Shown: one piece after another, positions 4,012-58,058 of the stretch | How the letters are laid out: each line of letters begins with the position of its first letter | Position numbering within the stretch: position 1 is the first letter of the stretch | Source: Candidatus Sumerlaeia bacterium | Lineage (GTDB): Bacteria; Sumerlaeota; Sumerlaeia; SLMS01; JANRJK01 | Direction of reading: 5' to 3' | Assembly (NCBI GenBank): GCA_033764015.1 | Contig: JANRJK010000019.1 | Span: 4,872 to 68,871 of the forward strand | DNA length: 64,000 nt | The notes under the pieces: model-generated | Database searches by the model: none | Told to the model about the DNA's origin: nothing | Seen by the model: the letters and a program-made list of their open reading frames with translations, nothing else | Position numbers and translations under genes: made by a program

Positions 4012-5280
4012 GTGTGCTTGACGAGATCGAGCAAGACGGGGAAAGCGCCGCCAACGGCCGAGGTCATCGGCGAAGAGTCGAGCGGGATGCAGACGCTTCG
4101 CGTGCCGCCCGGTGGCGGGGGCATCATCGAGTTGGATCGCATCTTTGGGCTAAAGGCGGTCGAAGCTTACGAGTACACCCCCTACGGCATTCCTACCGTT
4201 CACTACAAGGACGGGGCGATGGTTCGCACCGTCGTGTGGGACGACGACAAGGATACTGTCACCACCACTTCAAGCGTTACCAGTAATACACGTCGAGGCG
4301 AGTTTGCGGACGCGGCGTACCTGACGATGAGCGACTCTCCGTTCGGAGCGAGCTCATTTGACAAGGGGCGCGTGCGTAACTCCGCCGCGATGTCGCGGAT
4401 TGGTATCAAGCACCTCTACATGGCCCGGCCTTGGATTCCAGTTGGCGAAGTGTACCACATCCGCGCACGTTGGTACTCCCCGTTCGAGGGGCGGTTCATT
4501 ACTCTTGATCCGATTGGGTACGCAGGGGGTGCGAGTCAGTACATGTATTGCATGGGGGATTCTATTGACTTTATCGATCCGTTTGGCGAGGCCCCACTTG
4601 ACTGGGGCATTTGGTTGCAGGAGTGGTCTGAACCGCTGGAGGTGAAGGCTGCAAGATATGGTACGGGACCGATCAGCAATGTCATCGGGTTCGGTGGTTA
4701 CTACATGGCCAGTAGTGTAACTGCAGTTGGAGATATGCTGCAAGTCGGCACAGGACTGCACGCTGCTTGTAGCGGCTACGACATGAGTGGGCGGAAGCTT
4801 TCGACATTGGAGCGTTCTGAGCATCTATCCGGTGACATTTTCCGGGGTGTCGCCATCGGAGCTAGTGTGTATGGTGTCGGTAGAGGTTTCGACAGGATGG
4901 CATTTGGAAGTCGTAGGAATAGATTCTTGTACGATGGATGGGAAAAGAGTCGCGGCGAGATTTTGATCTTGGCTGAGAAGAACGGTGGACGAATGCTGGC
5001 GAATACTCCTGCCGGTCGCTTTGCTACAACTCTAGATAATGCAATGGGAAAGTCGGGGATGAGTAGCGAGCTAAGAGGGGGAGTATCGAATCGCATGTGG
5101 GATCATATGTCCCGCCACTATGCTCGGACTGCAAGGGGGAGGACATTCATCGCCCCGCTGGGAAAGAACCCTAACTCCGTGCTAAGGCGGGTTGAGATGC
5201 CTGAACTGATGAACAATAGTTGTGCTGATGTGCGTTACGTAGCGCGCGAGTACTTCGAGGCGCTTGGATGGCATCAATGA
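4012..5280 (+). CDS. orphan Rhs/YD-repeat C-terminal fragment: Rhs core end plus variable toxin domain
   Basis: YD-like repeats (YEYTPYGIPTVHYKDG) then the Rhs core signature RARWYSPFEGRFITLDPIGYAGGASQYMYCMGDSIDFIDPFGE (DPxG autoproteolysis motif at 4576-4590). A roughly 230-aa C-terminal domain of unknown family follows. GC falls from about 70% to about 50% downstream of the core. Confidence 0.75.
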   Translation: MCLTRSSKTGKAPPTAEVIGEESSGMQTLRVPPGGGGIIELDRIFGLKAVEAYEYTPYGIPTVHYKDGAMVRTVVWDDDKDTVTTTSSVTSNTRRGEFADAAYLTMSDSPFGASSFDKGRVRNSAAMSRIGIKHLYMARPWIPVGEVYHIRARWYSPFEGRFITLDPIGYAGGASQYMYCMGDSIDFIDPFGEAPLDWGIWLQEWSEPLEVKAARYGTGPISNVIGFGGYYMASSVTAVGDMLQVGTGLHAACSGYDMSGRKLSTLERSEHLSGDIFRGVAIGASVYGVGRGFDRMAFGSRRNRFLYDGWEKSRGEILILAEKNGGRMLANTPAGRFATTLDNAMGKSGMSSELRGGVSNRMWDHMSRHYARTARGRTFIAPLGKNPNSVLRRVEMPELMNNSCADVRYVAREYFEALGWHQ

Positions 5281-5302
5281 ATCGTCCCTTCGGAGGTGCA
5301 TC

Positions 5303-5701
5303 GTGAATCTGATGTCCGTTCTGAAGAGGGCTGTTTCCTTTCTGTGTGGTCGAAGTCAGACAGCATCGAGCGGTTCAAGAGGGCGCTTGAGAAGGATGGG
5401 TCCAGAGGGCGGTTACTTCGAGTTCTGGCACGAGGGAAGGATGCATTCTGTCGTCGCAGGGCTTCGCTACGACACAGACGTGGAGCAGGTTTTCTTGTAT
5501 CGGGATATCATCCTCACGGGGGCAGAGTGCCTAGACGTCGCGGAGTCGTCCGACGATTTGGTTGCGAGTCTCGAACAGAGCGCGAAGGAGTACTTTAAAC
5601 AAAGCGACGTGCGGCTTGTCGAGCACTCTGAAAGAAACCGCAATGTTCAACTTCGGGCAATGGAAGAGTTGAAGGCACTTCGTGCTCGAAAGGGTAGATG
5701 A
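5303..5701 (+). CDS. putative cognate immunity protein for the Rhs C-terminal toxin
   Basis: Low-GC ORF immediately downstream of, and overlapping, the toxin 3' end, in the frame of track ORF 5264..5701. GGAGG lies 6 nt upstream of GTG 5303 (alternative ATG at 5312). Its composition is balanced, whereas the alternative frame 5296..5598 is Arg-rich. No family recognised; the start is uncertain. Confidence 0.45.
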   Translation: MNLMSVLKRAVSFLCGRSQTASSGSRGRLRRMGPEGGYFEFWHEGRMHSVVAGLRYDTDVEQVFLYRDIILTGAECLDVAESSDDLVASLEQSAKEYFKQSDVRLVEHSERNRNVQLRAMEELKALRARKGR

Positions 5702-6057
5702 GTGATTTAGGGATGAACTGTCTGGTCACGATGCGAGACCAGCTACCTAATCCCTCACCCCATTGATGCTGACCTGCACTTGATTGCTTGACGTTGTTTG
5801 GGCGCGTTTGCGCCAGCGGCCCGTATGTCCACCCGCTAGCCCTACCGCTACCACATGCTTGTCGATCTTGAGCGCTTCGCGCGGGTCCGCCGCGAGGCGA
5901 TCCTCGAGGTCGACCGGGGGCGCGACGAAGGCCGATGTCGCGCGCCAAGTCGGCGTCGGCCGGCTGACGGAAGTCGACTACCTCCAGTTCGCGATCCCCA
6001 AGAAGCCTGTGGCCAAGGATCACCGTCCGTCGACTGCTCCAGTGGGGCATTTTCTCA

Positions 6058-6342
6058 ATACTCCACCCTCCAAGTCGGCGACTCCTCCACCCTGCTCCGC
6101 CTCCGGTCGTAGAGTCTGGTCGTGCTGACGTTTGCGTGCCCGAGCCATTCCTGCACCTTCGCGATGTCGGCTTGGTGCTCCAGGGCGTTGGTCGCGGCGG
6201 TTGCGCGGAGCGAGTGGACGCAGAGGCCGCGGATGTCGATGCCGGCACGGCGGGTGGGGTGCTGGACGATGTCGCGGAGGACGGATTCGGGGTGAGAAGA
6301 GAAGCTCTCACGCGAGGCCGCGAGGACGCGAAGTGTTGCGCT
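6058..6342 (-). pseudogene. tyrosine recombinase/phage integrase C-terminal remnant (no start codon, N-terminus missing)
   Basis: Reverse-complement frame reads ...HPESVLRDIVQHPTRRAGIDIRGLCVHSLRATAATNALEHQADIAKVQEWLGHANVSTTRLYDRRRSRVEESPTWRVEY*. HxLR and LGHxxxxTTxxY(catalytic Tyr) are integrase box II motifs. The frame opens directly after an in-frame stop, so this is a 95-aa fragment only. Confidence 0.6.
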
Positions 6343-6388
6343 TCAGGAACGCGGCAGGCCGCATGGACGCCCGCGACACTCTGCCGCG

Positions 6389-7300
6389 TTACCTGAAGAA
6401 GGCGTCCGCGCGCGAGTCGTCCGCCAGCTCGCGGACGCGGTCGCGGTCGAGGCCCGGCGAGAGGTCGCAGGCGAGGGCGATTTCGCGCTCCATGTCGAGC
6501 GCGGCGTTGCTCGCCAGCGAGTCGGTCCCGAGGTAGCAGCGCACGCCGCCCTCGAGCAGCCGCGCCAGCGGGAACGGGCCGCGCGCGAAGTAGGCGTGCG
6601 TGCCCGGGCAGACGACGGCGCTCGCGCCCGATTCGCGCATCAGGCGGATGTCCTCGTCGTCGATGTCGTTGCAGTGGGCGAGGAGCGTGCGCGGCCCGAG
6701 GGCGCCGCATTCCGCAAGCCACGGGACCGGGCGCAGGCCGGGGTGTTCCCAACCCGCGCGCAGGTGGAACTCGAGGAGGAAGTCCGCCAGCGGCCCGCGC
6801 CGGCGCAGCAGCAGTTCCGTCTCCTCCACGGTTTCCGCGGCGTGGATGCAGAGCCACTGGCCGCGGGCGCGCGCTTCGCGCACCGCCGCGCGCAGCAGCG
6901 GCGCCGTGATCGTGTACGGCGCGTGGGGCGAGAGGCCGTGGCGCGCGAGCGCGTCCTTGGCGCGGGAGAGCGCCTGCCGGTCCAGCGCGCCGCGCAGCGT
7001 CTCCTCGCCGGTGCGCGGGTTGGTGTCGATCACCTCGCGGAACAGCACGCGCCGCAGGGTGGTTGACTCAGTCAACGGTTCGTCCGCGGTGTCCATGGCG
7101 AGGATGTCGGCCACGGCGGTGGTGCCGTTCGCGGCGAGCTCCGCGAGGCCCGCGCGGGCGCTCGCGGCGCTGGCGAGCGCGGACCCGGCGCGCTTCAGCG
7201 GCAGCAGCCGCTCGAGCCACTCGGCGAAGGGGAGCCCCGGCGGGATCGCGCCCTTGAGGAACCCGAGTTCGAGGTGGCAGTGCGAGTTGAACGTGCCCAC
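6389..7300 (-). CDS. amidohydrolase-family metal-dependent hydrolase (lacks the usual N-terminal composite domain)
   Basis: The HCHLELG (HxH) metal-binding motif sits at residues 7-9 and later HxxE/D motifs are typical of the amidohydrolase superfamily. GTG start at 7300 lies 2 codons after the U32 stop and in the same frame. Confidence 0.65.
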   Translation of the reverse strand: MGTFNSHCHLELGFLKGAIPPGLPFAEWLERLLPLKRAGSALASAASARAGLAELAANGTTAVADILAMDTADEPLTESTTLRRVLFREVIDTNPRTGEETLRGALDRQALSRAKDALARHGLSPHAPYTITAPLLRAAVREARARGQWLCIHAAETVEETELLLRRRGPLADFLLEFHLRAGWEHPGLRPVPWLAECGALGPRTLLAHCNDIDDEDIRLMRESGASAVVCPGTHAYFARGPFPLARLLEGGVRCYLGTDSLASNAALDMEREIALACDLSPGLDRDRVRELADDSRADAFFR

Positions 7301-34626: not shown

Positions 34627-34778
34627 GCGTGCGATCCTCTAGTGGGTGCGTCTCGTCCTGTTTTGTCCACCCTTGCCGCATGCTCGGTCAAGTCTAGGCG
34701 GACACGACCCTTTACATCGGTTATGGCGGCGTTCCCCCTTGCCGGTACGCGGGAGCCCGCGCAAACCATTTCAGGACC

Positions 34779-37700
34779 ATGGAAGACGATCCGACCCCCG
34801 ACGCGCGCGAGCTGGCGAACACCGTTCCGCTGCATGTCCCCAGCGACTTGCCGGCGAGACCGTCGCTATCGTACAACCGCCGCTTCCCGAACGCCCAGGA
34901 CTCTTCGGATTCGGAGGAGGGCGACGACGATGGCTCGCCGGAAACGCTCGCCCAGCAAGCGCCCGGCAGCCGCTCGGGATCCATCGGCAAGGCGATCCGC
35001 GACGGCGCGATCACTCACGACGCCGACGCGCTCGGCTTCCATTTCGAACGACTGATCGGCCGGGGCGGCATGGGCGAAGTTTGGGAGGCCGTCCAGGCAC
35101 GCCTCGGGCGCATCGTCGCCGTCAAGCGCCTGCGCCCGCGCGGACGCGACTCCGACGATCATCACAGCACCGCCGCCCTGCACTCCTTCGAAGGCGAGGC
35201 GCTGACCGCCGCCCTCCTGGACCACCCGAACATCGTGCCGGTCTACGACCTCGGCTTCGATTCCGCCGGCCGCCCCCTCATGGCGATGAAGCTGGTCCGC
35301 GGCACCAACTGGCAAAAAGTCATCGAGCGCGACTTCAAGGCCCTCGAACCGGAGGACTACCTCGCCAAGCACCTGCCCATCTTCATGCAGGTGGTCCAGG
35401 CGGTCCTCTTCGCGCACTCCCGCGGCGTCGTCCACCGCGACCTGAAGCCCACCCAGGTCATGATCGGAGAGTACGGCGAAGTGCTCCTCATGGACTGGGG
35501 CCTCGCCATGATGATCGGCGATCCGCCGAGCCACATCGACCGCTCCACGTACCACGCCCGCTACCCGACGGCGGCGACCGCGGACAACCCTTCCGGGACA
35601 CCGGGCTACATGGCGCCCGAGCAGACCGAGATGTTCACCACGCGCATCGGCCCGTGGACGGACATCTACCTCCTCGGCGGGACGCTCTACCGGCTCCTCA
35701 CCGGAAAGCTCCCGCATCCCGGACGCACCAGCCAGGAAGTCTACCTCCACGCCGCCCACGGAGTGGTCCAGCCGTTCGCGGAGGCGGCGCCGGGACGCCA
35801 CGTGCCGGCGGACCTCGAACGCGTCGCGATGTGGGCCATGCTGCCCAATCCGGCGGAACGCCCCACGGGACGCGAGTTCGCCGACGCGCTGCAGGAGTTC
35901 ATGACCGGCTCCTCGAACCGCCGGGAATCCGAGCGCATCACCGACGAGATGGCGCTCGAAGCGCCGGACGACAACTACGCGGCCTACGTCGCGGGCCTGG
36001 CGAAGCTCGCCAACGCGATCCGCCTCTGGCCCGGCAACCACGACGTTGCGCCGCTGCGCGAGCGCCACCTGCTCGGCTACGCGAAGCTGGCGCTCCGCGA
36101 GGGCGACCTCTCCCTCGCCCGCGCGCAGGCGGAGCGGCTCGACGACGGCGAGGCCAAGCTCCGGCTGCTGAAGCAGATCGACGACGCGGCGCGCGCGGCC
36201 GCGCTCCAGAAGCGCCGCAACCAGCAGCTCGGGCTCGCCGCCGCCGCCATGCTCCTCGTCATCCTCGGCGGCGGCGCGGTCTTCACCCTCAGGCTCTCCG
36301 AGGCCAATCATGCCACCCGGGTGCAACTCGTCCTCACCAGCGAAGCCCGTATCGCGGAGGCGGACGCCCGCCGCGCGGCGCAGTTCGAGCTCCGCCGCGC
36401 CACGCTCCTCCTCGCCGAGTCGCTGATCGCCGAGGACCGCCTCGACGACGCCGTGAACGAGCTGCGCCGCATCCCCCTCGAAGAGCGCGGCCTCGAGTGG
36501 CGCTATCTGCTCACCAAGGCGCTCAAGGACCTTTGGTACAGCCCCTACGAGTACATGCACTTCTCGCCCTCCCGCAGGTTCGTGCTGGGGAACTTGGAGG
36601 GGGAGGGCCTCGCCGCGCTCCTCGCGGAGCCCGGAACCGTGCTGGCGCCCCTGGTCGATGCCCTGCCGGACGGGTTGGTCGTCGCTTGGTCGCGCGACGA
36701 GTCGCTGTTGGCCCTCGACGCCCCGACGCTTCCGCTGACGGTTTGGGAAACGGATAGCTGGCGGGTGCTCCGCAGCGAGGACCCCTCGACCACCGACACG
36801 GTGCGCGCGATCGACTTCTCCCCGGACGGACGCCAGCTCGCACTGGGCTACGAAAGCGGGCTCGTGACCGTGATGCCGCTCGCGGATGGATCCGAGCGGG
36901 CGCTCGCCCGCCATTCGACTCCGATCATCGGGGTTTTCTGGGGGGAGACCAAGTTGATGACGGCATCCCCCGACGAGCTTCGCCGGGTAGATCCGAAGAG
37001 TGGTGCACATACATTGGTCTACCGCACCGGAGCGGCCAGTGTTCCCTTCCGTCCTTTTAAGATTAGTGCGAACCGGCAGCGCACCCACGTCGCCTTCGGA
37101 CATGTGTTTGAAAAGGTTGCCTCAGTGGGAATCGAGGCAGGCGTTCCCATTACCTACTCGCACCCAGCAATACAGTGGTCCTTTAGCGGTCTCCAACAGC
37201 ACTTGATCCTTCCAGGGTTTGGATTCGAACCGCAAGTGGCGGTCTACGACCTCGAGACCGGACAAGATGTGTCGCGAAGGGCGCAGCCGAAGGTGCAAGC
37301 TATCGATCAAAATAGTAGTTTGCATGTGGCGAACGATGTTCACTACGTGGACTTGTCCGCCGCGGAGGACGTCGCTCTGGTGCTCGAAAGGCGGCATGAT
37401 TATGCATTGCGGAACTACCCCTCATTCTCCGCCCTCTTGAACGGCAAGTCCGTTTACTCTGGCAGGGAAATGGACCGTGTCACACTCCATCCATCAGGGC
37501 GGGCCCTTTGGGTGGCGCGCCCCGGCGGCCCCACCCGGACAGTCCCGGCTTCCTCGGCGTGGGCGGGACTTCCCATCCCCGGCAGCTACCCGAGCTTCGG
37601 GACCAACGACGCCTATATCGCTGCGTTGCAGCACGAATCTCACGACCACTTCGACCCCTCCACTGGTGAGAGAATTTTCGACTCGGGAGGCAAATTCAAC

Positions 37701-39584
37701 ATCTACCGGGGTTCCGACATGTCTGAGGATCGGAAGCGCTTCCTTCTTCCCGGGGTGCGGAGCGAAAAATACACCGTCCGTGTGTTCGACTACGAGAAGA
37801 AAGTATTGTTGAAAGAGCATGTCTTCGACTTCGGCTTCCGACGCGCCTTCTTCTCCGCCGAGAAGTCCACCATTGGGTTCCTCGCCCCCGATGGGACAAA
37901 TGCTGAAATCTATTCATTGTCGGGCGATTCGCCAGTACTCCTCATCGAAATGAAGGCGGAGGCAGAAGACATTTTCACGTTCGGATCGAGCTCGCCGGAT
38001 GGTGCGACATACTATCTGGGTACCATGTCCGGGCGGCTATGTGTGGTCGATGCTGCGAAAGGCACCGTTCTCCGCGAGTTCGAGCCGACCCCCAACCCGA
38101 TCCTACTCATTTCACAACGCCTCGACGGTCACTTGGTGGTGATTGACAACTCGAACATCGTGACGTTGGTTTCCGCAATCGACGGCACCATGGTGAACCG
38201 GGTACCCTTCAGCTTCGAGCCGCAGGGGCTGGCGGTTTCGCGGGCGGGCGACTTGGTCGCCTCTTGGAGCGAGTCGGGGCAGATCGAGGTGCGCAGACTC
38301 GGGGATGGCACGGTCGTCTCCCAGTCCAAGCGGACGGACTTCCCGCTCTTCGCGCTCCGCTTCGTCGGCGGCGACTCGCGGCTCATGGCATACGGAGACG
38401 GCGAGGCCCGCCTGTTCGATCCCGCTACCGGCGAAGACATCTTCACGATCCGGGATGGCTTCGGATCGCTCAGCGCGAGCGAGGACATGTACCTCGCGGA
38501 GGTCGAGGCCGGCAGGATCAGCGCACTGGTGTCGCTGGCCCCGAAGGAAGCCTTCGCGGAAGTCGGCGCCGCGGGTTCCGACTCGGCGGATGCGGCCCTC
38601 CACCGCTGGCGGCTCGACCGATACAGGACATGGCACCAGTACGCGATCCGGCACCGCGTCCACCCGGGCTGGAGCGCGGGGGCGGCGGTCTTGGAGCCCG
38701 GGGCGGTTCCCGCCTTGCGCGATTTCAGCTACCTATTCTCGATCGGCGAAGTCCCCGCCAACGATACGGCACTTCGGTTCCCCCGGACACGGCTCGAGCT
38801 CTTCGCCGCGTTCACGCTCGCCGCCGACCTGTTCCGATCTCCAATTGAGGACGGCTTTACGGAGTTCCCGGTCCTGAACGCGACCGCCCAGGCGGCGCCG
38901 GAGCTGTTCAACGGCCCCGTGGGATCCGCGGCGATCCTCATCGGCTCGGCCTACAGCCGGCGCTTGGAGGAGTCGCCCAGGATCGACTCGGAAGTGTGGG
39001 CCTTCGCTAGCCTGCTCCGCCACCAGCTCGACGCCGCGCGCGCACTCGCGGAACGCGGCGACCGCGAGGCGGCCTCCGCCGTGCTGCTGCGCGCCGCCGC
39101 GCATGTCCGGCTCGCAGACACACCCACGGGAGATTGGGAGTACGAACTCCGGCGCCTTGGCCTCGAACTTCCGGTACCTCCGCCGGCGGAGCTGGTGCGC
39201 GGGCCGAACATGGGAAGCCCGCCCTTCGTGCTGGAGCGCATGGCCATGCTCGATCCGATGGCGCCGCTGGAGGTGCGCGCCGCGGTCGCGAAGCAGGCCG
39301 CCGACGAGTACGCCGAGCGCGCGCGCGAGTACCTCGACCGCGTCGCCCCCCTTGTGGACTGGGACGCCCTGGTCGCCCGCCACGCGCCGTTCCCAGAGGA
39401 CTCACCCGTCCGCGAGGGCGTCCCCTTCGGACCCTACATCGCCGAGCGCCTCCCCGACCTTGAGCGGGGCGTGCTCGGCGGGCTCACGCTCGACGAGGCG
39501 CTGGAAGCGGAGCGCCGCCGCATCGAGGAGTTGTTCGCACCTCCCGCCATCCCGGACAGCGGCAGCCGGGTAGTCGCTCCCTAG
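34779..39584 (+). CDS. Ser/Thr protein kinase with a large C-terminal beta-propeller/repeat region
   Basis: LIGRGGMGEVWEA (Gly loop), AVKRL (Lys), HRDLKPTQVM (catalytic loop), DWGLA (DFG-like), GTPGYMAPE (activation loop). Followed by a coiled coil, a TM segment and WD40-like repeats. Confidence 0.85.
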   Translation: MEDDPTPDARELANTVPLHVPSDLPARPSLSYNRRFPNAQDSSDSEEGDDDGSPETLAQQAPGSRSGSIGKAIRDGAITHDADALGFHFERLIGRGGMGEVWEAVQARLGRIVAVKRLRPRGRDSDDHHSTAALHSFEGEALTAALLDHPNIVPVYDLGFDSAGRPLMAMKLVRGTNWQKVIERDFKALEPEDYLAKHLPIFMQVVQAVLFAHSRGVVHRDLKPTQVMIGEYGEVLLMDWGLAMMIGDPPSHIDRSTYHARYPTAATADNPSGTPGYMAPEQTEMFTTRIGPWTDIYLLGGTLYRLLTGKLPHPGRTSQEVYLHAAHGVVQPFAEAAPGRHVPADLERVAMWAMLPNPAERPTGREFADALQEFMTGSSNRRESERITDEMALEAPDDNYAAYVAGLAKLANAIRLWPGNHDVAPLRERHLLGYAKLALREGDLSLARAQAERLDDGEAKLRLLKQIDDAARAAALQKRRNQQLGLAAAAMLLVILGGGAVFTLRLSEANHATRVQLVLTSEARIAEADARRAAQFELRRATLLLAESLIAEDRLDDAVNELRRIPLEERGLEWRYLLTKALKDLWYSPYEYMHFSPSRRFVLGNLEGEGLAALLAEPGTVLAPLVDALPDGLVVAWSRDESLLALDAPTLPLTVWETDSWRVLRSEDPSTTDTVRAIDFSPDGRQLALGYESGLVTVMPLADGSERALARHSTPIIGVFWGETKLMTASPDELRRVDPKSGAHTLVYRTGAASVPFRPFKISANRQRTHVAFGHVFEKVASVGIEAGVPITYSHPAIQWSFSGLQQHLILPGFGFEPQVAVYDLETGQDVSRRAQPKVQAIDQNSSLHVANDVHYVDLSAAEDVALVLERRHDYALRNYPSFSALLNGKSVYSGREMDRVTLHPSGRALWVARPGGPTRTVPASSAWAGLPIPGSYPSFGTNDAYIAALQHESHDHFDPSTGERIFDSGGKFNIYRGSDMSEDRKRFLLPGVRSEKYTVRVFDYEKKVLLKEHVFDFGFRRAFFSAEKSTIGFLAPDGTNAEIYSLSGDSPVLLIEMKAEAEDIFTFGSSSPDGATYYLGTMSGRLCVVDAAKGTVLREFEPTPNPILLISQRLDGHLVVIDNSNIVTLVSAIDGTMVNRVPFSFEPQGLAVSRAGDLVASWSESGQIEVRRLGDGTVVSQSKRTDFPLFALRFVGGDSRLMAYGDGEARLFDPATGEDIFTIRDGFGSLSASEDMYLAEVEAGRISALVSLAPKEAFAEVGAAGSDSADAALHRWRLDRYRTWHQYAIRHRVHPGWSAGAAVLEPGAVPALRDFSYLFSIGEVPANDTALRFPRTRLELFAAFTLAADLFRSPIEDGFTEFPVLNATAQAAPELFNGPVGSAAILIGSAYSRRLEESPRIDSEVWAFASLLRHQLDAARALAERGDREAASAVLLRAAAHVRLADTPTGDWEYELRRLGLELPVPPPAELVRGPNMGSPPFVLERMAMLDPMAPLEVRAAVAKQAADEYAERAREYLDRVAPLVDWDALVARHAPFPEDSPVREGVPFGPYIAERLPDLERGVLGGLTLDEALEAERRRIEELFAPPAIPDSGSRVVAP

Positions 39585-51623: not shown

Positions 51624-52001
<378 letters not shown>

Positions 52002-52090
52002 CCTCAGACCCCAGACTTCATACGCTCCGAAAGGTTTCCACGGTGCCCAAGCGCAAGAAAAAGGACCAGCGGTCACGCAGCCAACGCAAG

Positions 52091-52564
52091 ATGTCGCGCC
52101 GCCGCATACCCCCCGGCCGCGGCCTAGTACCCGATCTCCGCTACGGCAGCACGCTCGTCAGCAAATTCATCAACGCCATCATGGTCGACGGCAAGAAGTC
52201 CGTCGCCCAGTCGATCTTCTACGGCGCCATGGACATCATCAAGGCCAAGATGCCCGAGCAGGAGCCCGTCGAGGTCTTCAACAAGGCGATCGACAACATC
52301 AAGCCGATCGTCGAAGTGAAGAGCCGCCGCGTCGGTGGCGCCAACTACCAGGTCCCCATCGAAGTCAAGACGCACCGCCAGCAGGCCCTCGCCTTCCGCT
52401 GGCTCGTCAACTACACCCGCGCACGCGGCGAACGCGGCACCGCCGCCAAGCTCGCGAACGAGGTCATGGACGCCTTCAACGGCACCGGTGGCGCCTTCAA
52501 GAAGAAGGAAGACACCCACCGCATGGCCGAAGCCAACAAGGCCTTCGCCCACTACCGCTGGTAA
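52091..52564 (+). CDS. rpsG: 30S ribosomal protein S7
   Basis: [37 protein letters not shown]...[19 protein letters not shown] at 52043 with a Lys-rich extension is an alternative start. Confidence 0.9.
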
Positions 52565-52675
52565 CCCGGCCGCGCGTCCGCGCGCGAGCAGTCGACCCCG
52601 AACAACAAGCGCGCCCCGCCGGACCATCCGGCGGGGCGGTTTCGTTTCGCTTCGAGACCAAGAGCTGCGCCCCGG

Positions 52676-53698
52676 CTACCGACCGGGTGCGAAGTCCAAG
52701 GTCGCCTCGTTGAAGACGAGCCGCCTTCCGGTCTTCGAGTTCGGATCCTCGAAAATCGGGATCGGCGCCGCCCCCGAATCTCCCGACCGGTAGAACAAGG
52801 AACGCTCCGCCAATCCCGCCGGCGAGACAATGTCCCGAGCAGGATCAACAGGGCGAACCTCCTCCAGCGTATACGTACTCCGGCTCTTCGCGACCGCCTC
52901 GTACTCCCCCAACAGGGCGCGCAGCTCCGCGGCGGATGTTGCGCTCCGGAGGTCGGTGCGGATCCCGTAAGAAGTCTCCGTCACCTGATGACCGGGCTCG
53001 TTCGGACGGCCTCCGGATGTTTGCATCGAAATCGACGGGAGAAAGGTCACCTCGGAGCCGCTGCCCCAAACCACGGCGGTCCCTGCCGCACTCCTCGTGA
53101 CGCTTCCATTGGAAGCGTCGATGAAGTCGAAGAAACCGCTGTAGGTGGTGAAGCCCTCTTGCGTTGCGACTGGTTCCTTCCCCGACACCCAGAGCACGCC
53201 CGGCTCGGGGGCCGATATCAGGTACGGACGCGAGGACCTCGAAACCTCTTCCACCATCAACGCCCGGCTGGACACGGAATCCGGGCCAACGATCATGTCT
53301 CCGACTACACTGAAGGGGGGAACGAACGTGGCAACGCTTGAGGCACTCGGGAACGCCGTGTAGGCTCCCCCCATCCATTCCACGGTCAGGACGCCATCCC
53401 AGAACATCAAGAACTGTGGCGAGGCCGCAAGCGTCGGGTCGGTCGTCTCCATATGCTGGAACACGACTGATCGATCCGTAGCAATCGCCTTGAAGTCAAA
53501 AGACTTGGACTCCGACGGCGCCTTCCCGCCGCCTGCCTGTTCGGAGCGAAGCGAGTAACGGAACACGGTACCGGACTCCAACGGCGCGATGGCCGAGTAC
53601 AGCTCTAGCGCTTCGCTCGGGGTTGATTCGACGACCTTCATGTTGATCGGCGCCTCGACCGATGCGCCGAGGCTGAGAACTAGGAATGCGAGGACCAT
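52676..53698 (-). CDS. secreted hypothetical protein (lower-GC gene)
   Basis: Signal peptide MVLAFLVLSLGASVEA. 340 aa, GC about 58%. No family recognised. Confidence 0.5.
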   Translation of the reverse strand: MVLAFLVLSLGASVEAPINMKVVESTPSEALELYSAIAPLESGTVFRYSLRSEQAGGGKAPSESKSFDFKAIATDRSVVFQHMETTDPTLAASPQFLMFWDGVLTVEWMGGAYTAFPSASSVATFVPPFSVVGDMIVGPDSVSSRALMVEEVSRSSRPYLISAPEPGVLWVSGKEPVATQEGFTTYSGFFDFIDASNGSVTRSAAGTAVVWGSGSEVTFLPSISMQTSGGRPNEPGHQVTETSYGIRTDLRSATSAAELRALLGEYEAVAKSRSTYTLEEVRPVDPARDIVSPAGLAERSLFYRSGDSGAAPIPIFEDPNSKTGRRLVFNEATLDFAPGR

Positions 53699-53716
53699 CT
53701 GGTGTCTCCTTTCGGG

Positions 53717-54160
53717 TCAACCTGCGGGGAAGCTCAGGCTCGGATGATTGCAGCCGATCGTGCTGTAGAAGACCGTCGCAAGACCGAGTCGACAGGAGTA
53801 ACTGCCGGTTCGGCGGTTATAGATCGTGGTCCACGGTCTCCTCGTAACGCAGGGGATCGTTCCGGCGTTGCACTCCTTGTTAATGGCGGCCGCGCAGGAA
53901 GCGAAGTTCGGAGTTGGGTCGTACTGGTAAGCGTCGATGGTATCCGCGCAGGATTGCCAACCGTTCGGCAAGATTCCACAGTACCCCGCGCCTGGTTCAA
54001 GGCAGATATCGTAATCGTCGTCGGGTGGGACCACACACGGATTGGCCGTCAACACGCATTCGGCTCCCGGCCAAACCTCCGCGTGGACTTTCGCCAAAGT
54101 TAAGGGGATCGCCGACAGCACAGCAAGCGCTGAGAGTAGCCCGGTGATGGATCTCCTCAT
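53717..54160 (-). CDS. small secreted Cys-rich hypothetical protein
   Basis: Start at MRRSITGLLSALAVLSAIPLTLAKVHA (signal peptide). The mature part has about 12 Cys. The TTG-initiated extension to 54238 is rejected. Confidence 0.45.
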   Translation of the reverse strand: MRRSITGLLSALAVLSAIPLTLAKVHAEVWPGAECVLTANPCVVPPDDDYDICLEPGAGYCGILPNGWQSCADTIDAYQYDPTPNFASCAAAINKECNAGTIPCVTRRPWTTIYNRRTGSYSCRLGLATVFYSTIGCNHPSLSFPAG

Positions 54161-55832: not shown

Positions 55833-56543
55833 TCAGCCCGCCGCTGCGAGCGCCGTGCCCGCCGACGTTGCGATCCGGATGCCCGGGCTCATCGTCGAGG
55901 ACAGGCAGATCGTCCGGAGGTAGTTGGCCTTCACGGAAGCCGGGCGCGCCTTCTGGATCGCCTCCAGCACCGCTTGGATGTTCTCCGCCAGCTTCGCCGC
56001 GTCGAAGGACATCTTGCCGACCACGAGGTGCATGTTCGCCAAGCGGTCCAGCTTGTACTCGATGCGGCCCGCCTTCAGCGATTCGATGGCGCTCTTCACG
56101 TCCGCGGTGACCGTGCCGGCCTTCGGGTTCGGCATCAGGTTGCGGGGGCCGAGCACCTTGCCGAGCTTGCCGACGTCGCGCATCATGTCCGGCGTCGAGA
56201 TCGCCGCGTCGAAATCGAGGAAACCCTCGAGGACCTTCTGCACCAGCTCCGCGCCGCCGGCGATGTCCGCCCCGGCCTCTTCCGCCTCGCGCAGCTTGTC
56301 GCCCTTGGCGAACACCAGCACGCGCACCTTCTTGCCGGTGCCGTGGGGCAGCGCGACGGTGCCGCGCACCTGCTGGTCCGCCTGGCGCGGGTCGACCCCG
56401 AGCCGGATATCGAGGTTCACCGTCTCGTCGAACTTCGCGAAGCTCACCATCTTGAGCAGCGCCACCGCCTCTTCGACGGTCAGCAGCTTCGCCTTGTCGA
56501 CGAGCGGGGCTACCTTCGCGTACTTCTTGCCGTGCTTCTTCAT
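55833..56543 (-). CDS. rplA: 50S ribosomal protein L1
   Basis: MKKHGKKYAKVAPLVDKAKLLTVEEAVALLK...VKANYLRTICLSSTMSPGIRI. Confidence 0.95.
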   Translation of the reverse strand: MKKHGKKYAKVAPLVDKAKLLTVEEAVALLKMVSFAKFDETVNLDIRLGVDPRQADQQVRGTVALPHGTGKKVRVLVFAKGDKLREAEEAGADIAGGAELVQKVLEGFLDFDAAISTPDMMRDVGKLGKVLGPRNLMPNPKAGTVTADVKSAIESLKAGRIEYKLDRLANMHLVVGKMSFDAAKLAENIQAVLEAIQKARPASVKANYLRTICLSSTMSPGIRIATSAGTALAAAG

Positions 56544-56601
56544 CTTAGCGTCTCCATGTGGTCCGAGCGGCGGCCGCCGAAGGGCCGCCTCCCACCGAAT
56601 G

Positions 56602-57027
56602 TCAGTCCACGACCTCGATGCCCATGTTGCGGGCGGTGCCGGCCATCATCGAGACGGCGGCTTCCAGGCTTGCGGCGTTGATGTCCTTCTTCTTCATCTC
56701 GGCGATCTCCGCGAGCTGCTTGCGGGTCACCTTGCCCACCTTCTCCTTGTTCGGCTTCGCGGAGCCCTTGGCGATGCCCGCGGCCTTGAGGAGCAGCGTC
56801 GGAGCGGGGGGCGACTTCGTCTCGAAGGTGAACGATCGGTCCGAGAAGACCGTGATCACCACCGGGATCGTGTAGCCTTCCTGCTTCGCGGTGCGCGCGT
56901 TGAATTCCTTGCAGAACTGCATGATGTTGACGCCGTGCTGGCCCAGCGCGGGGCCGACCGGCGGCGAGGGGTTCGCCTTTCCGGCGGGGCACTGCAGCTT
57001 GACCTGGGCGACTGCCTTCTTGGCCAT
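56602..57027 (-). CDS. rplK: 50S ribosomal protein L11
   Basis: [44 protein letters not shown]... Confidence 0.95.
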
Positions 57028-57087
57028 TTAGCCTACTCCGATTGGGTCTTCGGGGCGCCTTGGCGGCCCCCGTTCGGTCGAGGGTCC

Positions 57088-57618
57088 TTAGATCGCTTCC
57101 ACTTCGAGCACGTTCAAATCCACCGGGGTCGCGCGGCCGAAGATCGACACCATGACGCGGAGCCGCGCCTTGTCCACGTCGATCTCCTCGACAGTCCCCT
57201 GGAAGTTCGCGAACGCGCCCTCGATCACCTTCACCTTGTCGCCCTTGCGGAAACGGATCTCCGCCTTCGGCTTGTCCTTCTTGTCCTCGATCAGCCCCAG
57301 CACATTCCCGATCTCCTCTTCCGAGAGGGCCACCGGGGTGTCGCCGGTGCCGGCGAAGCTCGACACGCCGCCGACTTCCCGCACCATCTTGAACACCTCC
57401 CCATCCGATTCCATCTGGATGAAGACGTATCCGGGCATAAAGTTGCGGCTCGACTCCTTCTTCTTGCCGTCCTTGACCTCGACGACCTTCTCCTCCGGCA
57501 CGACGATCTGACCGATCTTATCGCGCAGGCCCTCGATCGAAGCGCGATGTTCGATGTCGCGCTTCACCTTCTTCTCGAAGCTGGAGTAGGTATGCACCGC
57601 ATACCATTGCATGGACAT
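57088..57618 (-). CDS. nusG: transcription termination/antitermination factor NusG
   Basis: MSMQWYAVHTYSSFEKKVKRDIE... (NGN domain) and a C-terminal KOW (FRKGDKVKVIEGAFANFQGTVEEID). Start at 57618. Confidence 0.9.
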   Translation of the reverse strand: MSMQWYAVHTYSSFEKKVKRDIEHRASIEGLRDKIGQIVVPEEKVVEVKDGKKKESSRNFMPGYVFIQMESDGEVFKMVREVGGVSSFAGTGDTPVALSEEEIGNVLGLIEDKKDKPKAEIRFRKGDKVKVIEGAFANFQGTVEEIDVDKARLRVMVSIFGRATPVDLNVLEVEAI

Positions 57619-57750
57619 CGGAGTCTCCTGTCCGCGTCGTGGGGTGGCCGTTCCGCAACCCGCGCCTCGCCGGGCGCGCGCGTCACTCAAAGCCGTTCAG
57701 GGATGCCGTGGGCGGGGTGCCGCCGAGGCGCAGGCGGGCCGGAGCCCTCC

Positions 57751-57993
57751 TTAGCCGATCAGCGACAAGATGAGCTGGACCAGCTCCGAAAGCCCCTTGT
57801 CCAGCGAGAAGAACACGACCGAGGCGACCGCCGTGGAAACCAGCACCAGCGACGTGTACGCCTTGACCTGCTCCTTCGTGGGCCAGGTGACCTTCGTCAT
57901 CTCGACCTTCACCTCGCGGAAATAGTTTCCCGTCGAGGCGAGGAAGCCGTTGAACCCTTTTGGCTTGGTGGCTGCAGCTTCAGCCATCCGCAA
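57751..57993 (-). CDS. secE: preprotein translocase subunit SecE
   Basis: ...FREVKVEMTKVTWPTKEQVKAYTSLVLVSTAVASVVFFSLDKGLSELVQLI, the SecE single TM signature. Confidence 0.85.
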   Translation of the reverse strand: MRMAEAAATKPKGFNGFLASTGNYFREVKVEMTKVTWPTKEQVKAYTSLVLVSTAVASVVFFSLDKGLSELVQLILSLIG

Positions 57994-58058
57994 CTCCTTG
58001 GTTCTCCTGCGAGACGCGGGGCCGTGGCCCGGGTGCGACCGCAGTGTGGCGATTCGTT

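Follow-up and report, generated by a model that had tools for sequence, protein, structure and literature searches.

The C-terminal half of an Rhs toxin tip encoded in a 64-kb stretch of DNA from a Candidatus Sumerlaeia genome (64,000 nucleotides, hereafter the window) is, by homology and by fold, related to the ADP-ribosyl cyclases (ARC). The tip is the tail that follows the DPFGE motif of the open reading frame (ORF) at 4012..5280, and its last ~125 residues are probably a highly divergent ARC (Tox-ARC, CD38-fold) domain, predicted to deplete NAD(P)+ (nicotinamide adenine dinucleotide and its phosphate). An earlier note on this DNA, made from the sequence alone, had described the whole tail as unassigned and as a potential new family of toxin tips. 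The former description is still appropriate for tail residues 1-100 but not for the last ~125 residues, and the idea of a new family or fold has to be given up, since sequence profiles, hhalign and Foldseek all identify the C-terminal half as ARC. A possible new toxin family thus becomes a concrete assignment, namely a CD38-fold toxin predicted to consume NAD(P)+.

The relatives of the tail are few and distant. A word-indexed search of 5.8 billion proteins with the protein bearing the tail found only the protein itself, and an exhaustive phmmer search of 1.84 billion cluster representatives gave three distant matches (P0002, P0003 and P0004). One of them, P0003, is a fragment of an Rhs protein (E = 2.6e-6). 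P0004, a protein of 491 aa which founds a stand-alone group, matches tail residues 110-223 with its N-terminus (E = 8e-5). P0002, a LamG-repeat protein (E = 1.5e-9, tail residues 6-116), was rejected as a chance match because its score sums four near-identical repeats of ~37-40 bits each, at 27% identity. When the Sumerlaeia tail (the query) is aligned with P0003 and P0004, its last ~125 residues are seen to contain a conserved block, F-[YW]-[SD]-G...T-P-A-G-R...W-x-x-x-S-x-x-[FY]-A-x-x-A-x-G...V-E-x-P-x-L, and a profile search adds eight stand-alone members (P0005-P0012). Two scans of GTDB representatives and one metagenome scan for relatives returned the P0003 contig only. The branch is extremely rare: out of 15 billion proteins, two Rhs-linked ones and a small group of stand-alone ones belong to it.

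The profiles built from these sequences point to ARC enzymes. The profile of the three sequences (query, P0003 and P0004) retrieves from the PDB, in this order, 9RO8 ("ADP-ribosylcyclase toxin"), CD38, 9OUF and the Aplysia cyclase. With a 10-sequence profile, eight ARC sequences are found at E-values of 8e-7 to 5e-4, including 9RO8 (8.2e-7), the Aplysia cyclase (2.8e-6), Tac1 (9OUF; 2.1e-5) and CD38 (4.9e-4), and the next, non-ARC match lies at E = 0.3. Furthermore, six of the ten family members singly match the Pfam model of ADP-ribosyl cyclases, PF02267 (best E = 2.4e-5). Since the larger profile is dominated by the stand-alone group, the query was tested separately against a canonical set of 346 bacterial ARC toxins, with a hidden Markov model (HMM) built from 100 of them, none from the query family. 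Against this HMM, residues 165-210 of the query tail score 15.8 bits, and the best of 2000 shuffles of the tail 10.4. Similarly, hhalign of the query plus P0003 against the canonical alignment gives E = 1.2e-5 and a probability of 81% over tail residues 111-212. Identity of the domain to canonical ARC toxins is 15-20%.

Structure prediction provides additional clues. The AlphaFold model of the tail as a single sequence was unusable, with a predicted local distance difference test (pLDDT) score of 35. AlphaFold2 with a 96-sequence alignment reached a pLDDT of 76-95 over residues ~105-229, which adopt a beta-alpha-beta layout of alternating strands and helices. The predicted fold is two-lobed and alpha/beta, with a four-stranded sheet and a helical cap, as is typical of ARC. 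When this model was compared with the PDB by Foldseek, the first 43 matches were all ARC-fold structures (MARTX RDTND, 9RO8, 9OUF, Aplysia cyclase, CD38, BST-1), 9RO8 with a template modelling score of 0.60 normalised by its own length.

The active site is conserved in part. Five residues form that of CD38 (W125, E146, W189, S193 and E226), and the Pantoea toxin ARCtox uses W273, E299, W323 and E356 (PMC12605009). Among 100 canonical bacterial ARC toxins, the five corresponding positions read W (99), E (99), W (99), S (100) and E (99). In the query they are occupied by Tyr114, Ala137, Trp170, Ser174 and Glu202 (numbered within the tail), and in P0003 by Trp, Ser, Trp, Ser and Glu. Glu202 is invariant in the family and aligned with the ELP motif of all ARC references; Gly116 and Pro204 are also kept in the query. 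The placement of Ala137 derives from hhalign, which pairs GGRMLANT with GGVTLEST, and the alignment with ITLEDT of the Aplysia cyclase concurs, as does the end of a strand at this point in the AlphaFold2 model. Beside the active site, Asp115 (4933-4935) replaces a near-universal ARC Ser (FWSG to FLYDG), a change unique to the query protein. In Tac1, E573 is essential and E516, the equivalent of CD38 E146, promotes hydrolysis of the cyclic intermediate (PMC12356396). The Tac1 E516A mutant releases cyclic ADP-ribose (cADPR) and is still toxic, and Nac1, with a natural Ala at this position, is active, giving approximately equal amounts of cADPR and ADP-ribose (PMC12356396). Given the activity of Nac1, the second Glu governs the product and not family membership.

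The sequence preceding the tail is that of an Rhs protein. The ORF is uninterrupted and open from GTG 4012 (422 aa); the start given by NCBI for the same protein is ATG 4087, yielding 397 aa (MDX2176099.1, "RHS repeat-associated core domain-containing protein", from a Candidatus Sumerlaeia metagenome-assembled genome). TIGR03696 matches with E = 2.2e-12 and 47.3 bits, against a cut-off of 32.5, and the C-terminal organization of Rhs proteins, this core and then two DPxG motifs 17-18 residues apart, is recovered here. Rhs and TcC proteins have two such autoprotease motifs, the catalytic Asp being in the second, and the spacing of DPIGY and DPFGE by 18 residues is the arrangement known from them (PMC8636562); from these motifs, cleavage is predicted to take place after DPFGE. 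The earlier note was thus right to place a variable toxin tip downstream of the Rhs cleavage motif. Its tail of ~230 aa is also confirmed as an intact reading frame, beginning with the Ala codon 4591-4593 directly after DPFGE and running for 229 aa (APLDWGIWLQEW...EALGWHQ), with the quoted Gly-rich strings present, to the stop at 5278-5280.

A small ORF (5303..5701) starts 22 nt past the toxin stop, with GGAGG 6 nt ahead of its GTG, and is presumed to encode the cognate immunity protein; the NCBI label of its product is hypothetical protein. Tox-ARC toxins are classically paired with Imm74 (Zhang et al. 2012; PMC12356396), which we found directly downstream in all five canonical ARC loci opened. 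The ORF that follows P0003 is Imm74-like (WEPPY motif, 17.8 bits, hhalign E = 2e-5) and, Imm74 being the classic Tox-ARC immunity, this supports the ARC assignment. Its product represents a long divergent Imm74, of 117 aa against the usual ~77.

Several observations weigh against an ARC toxin at this locus. By itself, the tail matches nothing in Pfam (PF02267 included) or NCBIfam at E <= 1, so that for curated libraries the earlier note was correct in calling it unassigned, and the best E-value of a single-sequence phmmer search of PDB sequences is 1.3. The ARC assignment of the query thus relies on profiles and transitive homology, and current Pfam and NCBIfam models miss this remote branch of ARC toxins. 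The AlphaFold2 alignment held canonical ARC toxins, so that the fold result is not fully independent, and the Foldseek E-values are modest (~5e-4). In both Rhs-linked members (query and P0003) the second active-site acid, contained in the [ST][DE] motif of Zhang et al. (2012), is without a match, and the residue at the W125 position of the query is aromatic but not Trp. ARCtox E299A loses toxicity in E. coli (PMC12605009) and Nac1, the natural Ala-bearer, is non-toxic (PMC12356396), making reduced potency of the query a real possibility. ORF 5303..5701 has no Pfam match, and its candidacy as an Imm74 was rejected (263rd among its own shuffles with the Imm74 HMM, hhalign probability 0.1%); since it is not Imm74, its immunity role is deduced only from its position. 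The Rhs protein itself has no shell (Pfam finds no YD-shell), PAAR, signal peptide or N-terminal delivery domain, and no further YD-repeat or Rhs sequence, and no full-length rhs, occurs in the window. There are also no orthologues close enough for a test of purifying selection.

With no shell and only ~140 residues upstream of the Rhs core, the gene is an orphan fragment and not a complete Rhs effector, and the cassette looks like a solitary orphan Rhs module. To be delivered, it would consequently have to recombine with a full-length rhs located elsewhere; no secretion-system genes were seen among the large ORFs checked in the window. A stranded fragment of this kind could be a decaying remnant, neither delivered nor toxic today, with an ARC domain crippled by the Glu to Ala and Trp to Tyr replacements. 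The missing delivery parts, the Ala where 99 of 100 canonical toxins have Glu and the non-toxic ARCtox E299A and Nac1 would all be consistent with such decay, as would the fact that the Rhs protein and the product of the downstream ORF are both singletons among 15 billion sequences. Nevertheless, we regard this scenario as unlikely. Both ORFs are free of frameshifts and stops, the second is preceded by a good Shine-Dalgarno sequence, and E202, S174, W170, G116 and P204 are all kept. Moreover, Tac1 E516A stays toxic, and P0003, which belongs to a typical orphan Rhs array, has Ser in its place; the substitution is thus common to the subgroup and not a private lesion.

We favor a functional, NAD(P)+-depleting ARC toxin, and put forward the following mechanism. 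The 229-aa tail would act as the toxin tip of a horizontally acquired, orphan and shell-less Rhs cassette. On the model of Tac1 and Pantoea ARCtox, NAD+ or NADP+ would be bound by the ARC domain in the cleft that separates the beta-sheet from the helical cap, where Glu202 would drive the release of nicotinamide and Trp170, Tyr114 and Ser174 would hold the nucleotide in position. The loss of NAD(P)+ would poison the cell, and the product of ORF 5303..5701 would neutralise the toxin as its cognate immunity protein. Since Ala137 replaces the hydrolysis-promoting second Glu, a substantial share of cADPR would be expected, and not just linear ADP-ribose. In an alternative scenario the ARC fold would serve another chemistry, either as a dedicated cyclase or a base-exchange enzyme that makes a toxic or signalling product (cADPR, nicotinic acid adenine dinucleotide phosphate or a variant), or as a glycosidase acting on another nucleotide. 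The Ala at the E146 position, as in Nac1, CD38 E146A and Tac1 E516A, the extreme divergence from canonical toxins and an immunity candidate that differs from Imm74 would suit this scenario, and toxicity of the product was raised as a possibility by Zhang et al. (2012). However, all characterised bacterial ARC toxins deplete NAD(P)+ (PMC12356396, PMC12605009) and there is no sequence sign of another substrate; we hold this alternative to be quite improbable, and it largely overlaps with the depletion of NAD(P)+. Going beyond the favored mechanism, this locus and the one metagenomic Rhs array might represent a Glu-less lineage of ARC toxins which kills chiefly via cADPR or a related nucleotide, and which has a new immunity protein and a Gly-rich pre-toxin segment of ~100 residues for entry. 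This is a tentative proposal, to which we give a small but appreciable chance.

The Gly-rich first half of the tail (17% Gly) had suggested to the earlier note a membrane activity of the glycine-zipper type. Two of its stretches, tail residues 28-46 and 79-97, are mildly hydrophobic, and it matches no family and falls within the poorly modelled part of the tail (pLDDT < 50 for residues 1-88), all of which would leave room for a membrane-active toxin or for a wholly new toxin fold. However, the highest 19-residue Kyte-Doolittle mean in this half is 1.03, the usual threshold for a membrane helix being ~1.6, and there are only two GxxxG motifs. The first 106 tail residues have no match to a Pfam family or a homologue, and even the corresponding part of P0003 shows no significant similarity to the Gly-rich half (BLASTP E = 10). 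Given in addition that an enzyme domain can be recognised in the other half of the tail, we find the glycine-zipper proposal very hard to sustain. A pre-toxin linker seems a better description. The segment before the ARC domain measures ~110 residues, against ~45 from cleavage motif to first strand in canonical Rhs–ARC fusions, and tail residues ~79-105 may form an N-terminal helix of the enzyme domain. That the Gly-rich segment has a role in entry is speculation.

The surroundings of the Rhs-linked and stand-alone relatives also deserve description. The P0003 contig (L001:4171-8536) has a tandem array of at least three orphan Rhs C-terminal modules with a near-identical end of the core (GGVEYVYDGDGQRVKK...) and differing tips, each module being followed by a small ORF. 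The ARC-like domain of the stand-alone relatives P0004-P0012 (L002:1760-2437, L003:1663-2340) is N-terminal and has either Asp or Glu at the E146 position; after it come a helical segment, which is conserved, and a tail rich in Lys, Ser and Gln that closes with PPPQQxxKRxR. Their genes lie beside those of a TraG/TrwB coupling protein and a RepB-type primase, and thus on a conjugative element, where no immunity gene is obvious. The 2025 papers on ARC toxins (PMC12356396, PMC12605009) describe no ARC enzyme carried by conjugative elements.

The coordinates of the features are collected in the table below.

Table. Features of the orphan Rhs cassette and its flanks (positions within the window; residue numbers refer to the tail unless stated otherwise).
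Feature	Position	Strand	Remark
trpB	ends 3928	+	left flank of the low-GC island
Low-GC island (~0.53-0.58)	4050..5850 (edges approximate)	.	between trpB and the amidohydrolase gene
Truncated shell-less Rhs protein	4087..5280	+	last YD repeat, Rhs core, toxin tail
Last YD repeat, YEYTPYG	4168-4188	+	in the truncated Rhs protein
Rhs repeat-associated core	4447..4587	+	NCBIfam TIGR03696, aa 146-192 of the 422-aa ORF
Aspartyl-autoprotease motifs	4507..4590	+	DPIGY (4507-4521) and DPFGE (4576-4590), spacing 18 residues
Gly-rich (17% Gly) first ~100 tail residues	4591..4890	+	pre-toxin linker segment
Divergent ADP-ribosyl cyclase (ARC/CD38-fold) domain	4891..5277	+	tail residues ~101-229
Tyr114 (FLYDG)	4930..4932	+	position of CD38 W125, FWSG strand
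Ala137 (MLANT)	4999..5001	+	position of CD38 E146, Tac1 E516, ARCtox E299
Trp170 and Ser174 (RMWDHMS)	5098..5112	+	5098-5100 and 5110-5112; equivalent to CD38 W189 and S193
Glu202 (VEMPEL)	5194..5196	+	equivalent to CD38 E226, Tac1 E573, ARCtox E356
Candidate immunity gene	5303..5701	+	132 aa, MDX2176100.1; GTG start, GGAGG at 5292-5296
Amidohydrolase gene	6389..7300	-	right flank of the low-GC island

The base composition of the locus sets it apart from its flanks. GC content in the window is ~0.70-0.75, with a dip to 0.51-0.58 across roughly 4050-5850. The low GC remarked upon in the earlier note is thus evident, at 0.533 for the tail and 0.539 for the next ORF, while trpB has 0.707 and the amidohydrolase gene 0.745, and at third codon positions (GC3) the Rhs ORF has 0.60 against ~0.9 in the neighbouring host genes. 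The island is of foreign composition and was horizontally acquired by the high-GC Sumerlaeia genome. Signs of a mobile element at the island (tRNA, flanking repeats, Pfam matches in the spacer 5702-6388, Rfam) were limited to chance-level matches. This spacer, which separates the candidate immunity gene from the amidohydrolase gene by ~690 bp, has an intermediate GC content of 0.65 and no convincing ORF, Pfam or Rfam match. It may be what decay has left of the right edge of the inserted island. A sub-threshold match to the Rfam family Ref68, an Enterococcus small RNA, at 4069-4245 inside the Rhs ORF (24 bits against a gathering score of 44) is almost certainly due to chance. Elsewhere in the window, GC is lowered to 0.63-0.65, against ~0.70, in the 2-kb bins 36001-38000, 52001-54000 and 56001-58000. 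The first of these falls within an ORF of 1628 aa (34698..39584) for a Ser/Thr kinase with a beta-propeller, and the other two could be more foreign DNA. Upstream of trpB, a 586-aa ORF (855-2615, + strand) has a host-like GC3 of 0.85, is Ala/Leu-rich and has a hydrophobic N-terminal segment, with no Pfam match at E <= 1e-5.

Tox-ARC domains were described in silico by Zhang et al. (2012) as tips of Rhs, CdiA, LXG and PAAR toxins with conserved [ST][DE], S and E and with Imm74 as immunity, and experiments published in 2025 established ARC tips as NAD(P)+-depleting toxins, naming Rhs among the carriers (PMC12356396, PMC12605009). Among the closest known systems, the Pantoea ananatis PAAR-ARCtox (C-terminal domain of PANA_2924, 9RO8; PMC12605009) is the best sequence-profile match and the best domain-sized structural match. 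ARCtox and the query are both C-terminal polymorphic-toxin tips and have the catalytic Glu, Trp and Ser in common. At ~15% identity, however, ARCtox has Glu299 and Trp273 where the query has Ala137 and Tyr114, is fused to PAAR instead of Rhs, and has an immunity protein unrelated to ORF 5303..5701; the helix insertion of the query, TPAGR, is also unlike ARCtox and resembles the eukaryotic TLLGY/TLPGY. Tac1, the LXG toxin of the type VIIb secretion system (T7SSb) of Streptococcus parasanguinis (9OUF; PMC12356396), shares with the query the fold, the essential Glu (E573, equivalent to E202) and the organization as a toxin tip with a small immunity gene directly downstream, but differs in having Glu516, linear ADP-ribose as its only product, Imm74 immunity and an LXG delivery domain. 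Nac1 of Actinophytocola oryzae, judged from its published description (PMC12356396), is alike in the Ala at the Tac1 Glu516/CD38 E146 position; it is stand-alone, Sec-secreted and without toxin context or immunity gene, whereas the query is fused to Rhs and followed by a small ORF.

Among more distant systems, Aplysia cyclase, CD38 and BST-1 (PF02267) share the FWSG, T-x-x-G, W-x-x-x-S-x-x-x-A-x-x-A-x-G and E-L-P motifs, but these eukaryotic enzymes have an extra N-terminal helical lobe of ~70 residues and disulfides, and act in signalling and not as toxins. RDTND of Vibrio vulnificus MARTX (8KA0/8KA1), a large toxin's effector domain and an ARC-like NADase, gave the lowest Foldseek E-value (5.4e-4), although its rank above 9RO8 is not meaningful because the alignment crosses the low-confidence half of the model, with a root-mean-square deviation of 9-10 Å. 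In contrast to the query, it is directed at eukaryotes and named RID-dependent, according to the PDB title. Finally, canonical Rhs–ARC fusions (for example P0047 and P0122), like the Tox-ARC of Zhang et al. (2012), have the same order of Rhs core, DPxG, short linker, ARC domain and immunity gene; in contrast to the query, canonical tips are detected directly and have Imm74 downstream in the five loci opened. With Rhs–ARC toxins known from the 2012 and 2025 work, the query is a rare divergent member of a known toxin type, and the locus is otherwise an ordinary orphan Rhs toxin/immunity cassette. What it adds is a very remote and very rare branch that escapes curated models, an Ala in place of the second catalytic residue, a pre-toxin segment of greater length and a different immunity candidate. 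The Rhs-linked members, being naturally devoid of the Glu that decides between hydrolysis and cADPR, offer a convenient natural test of whether killing needs it.

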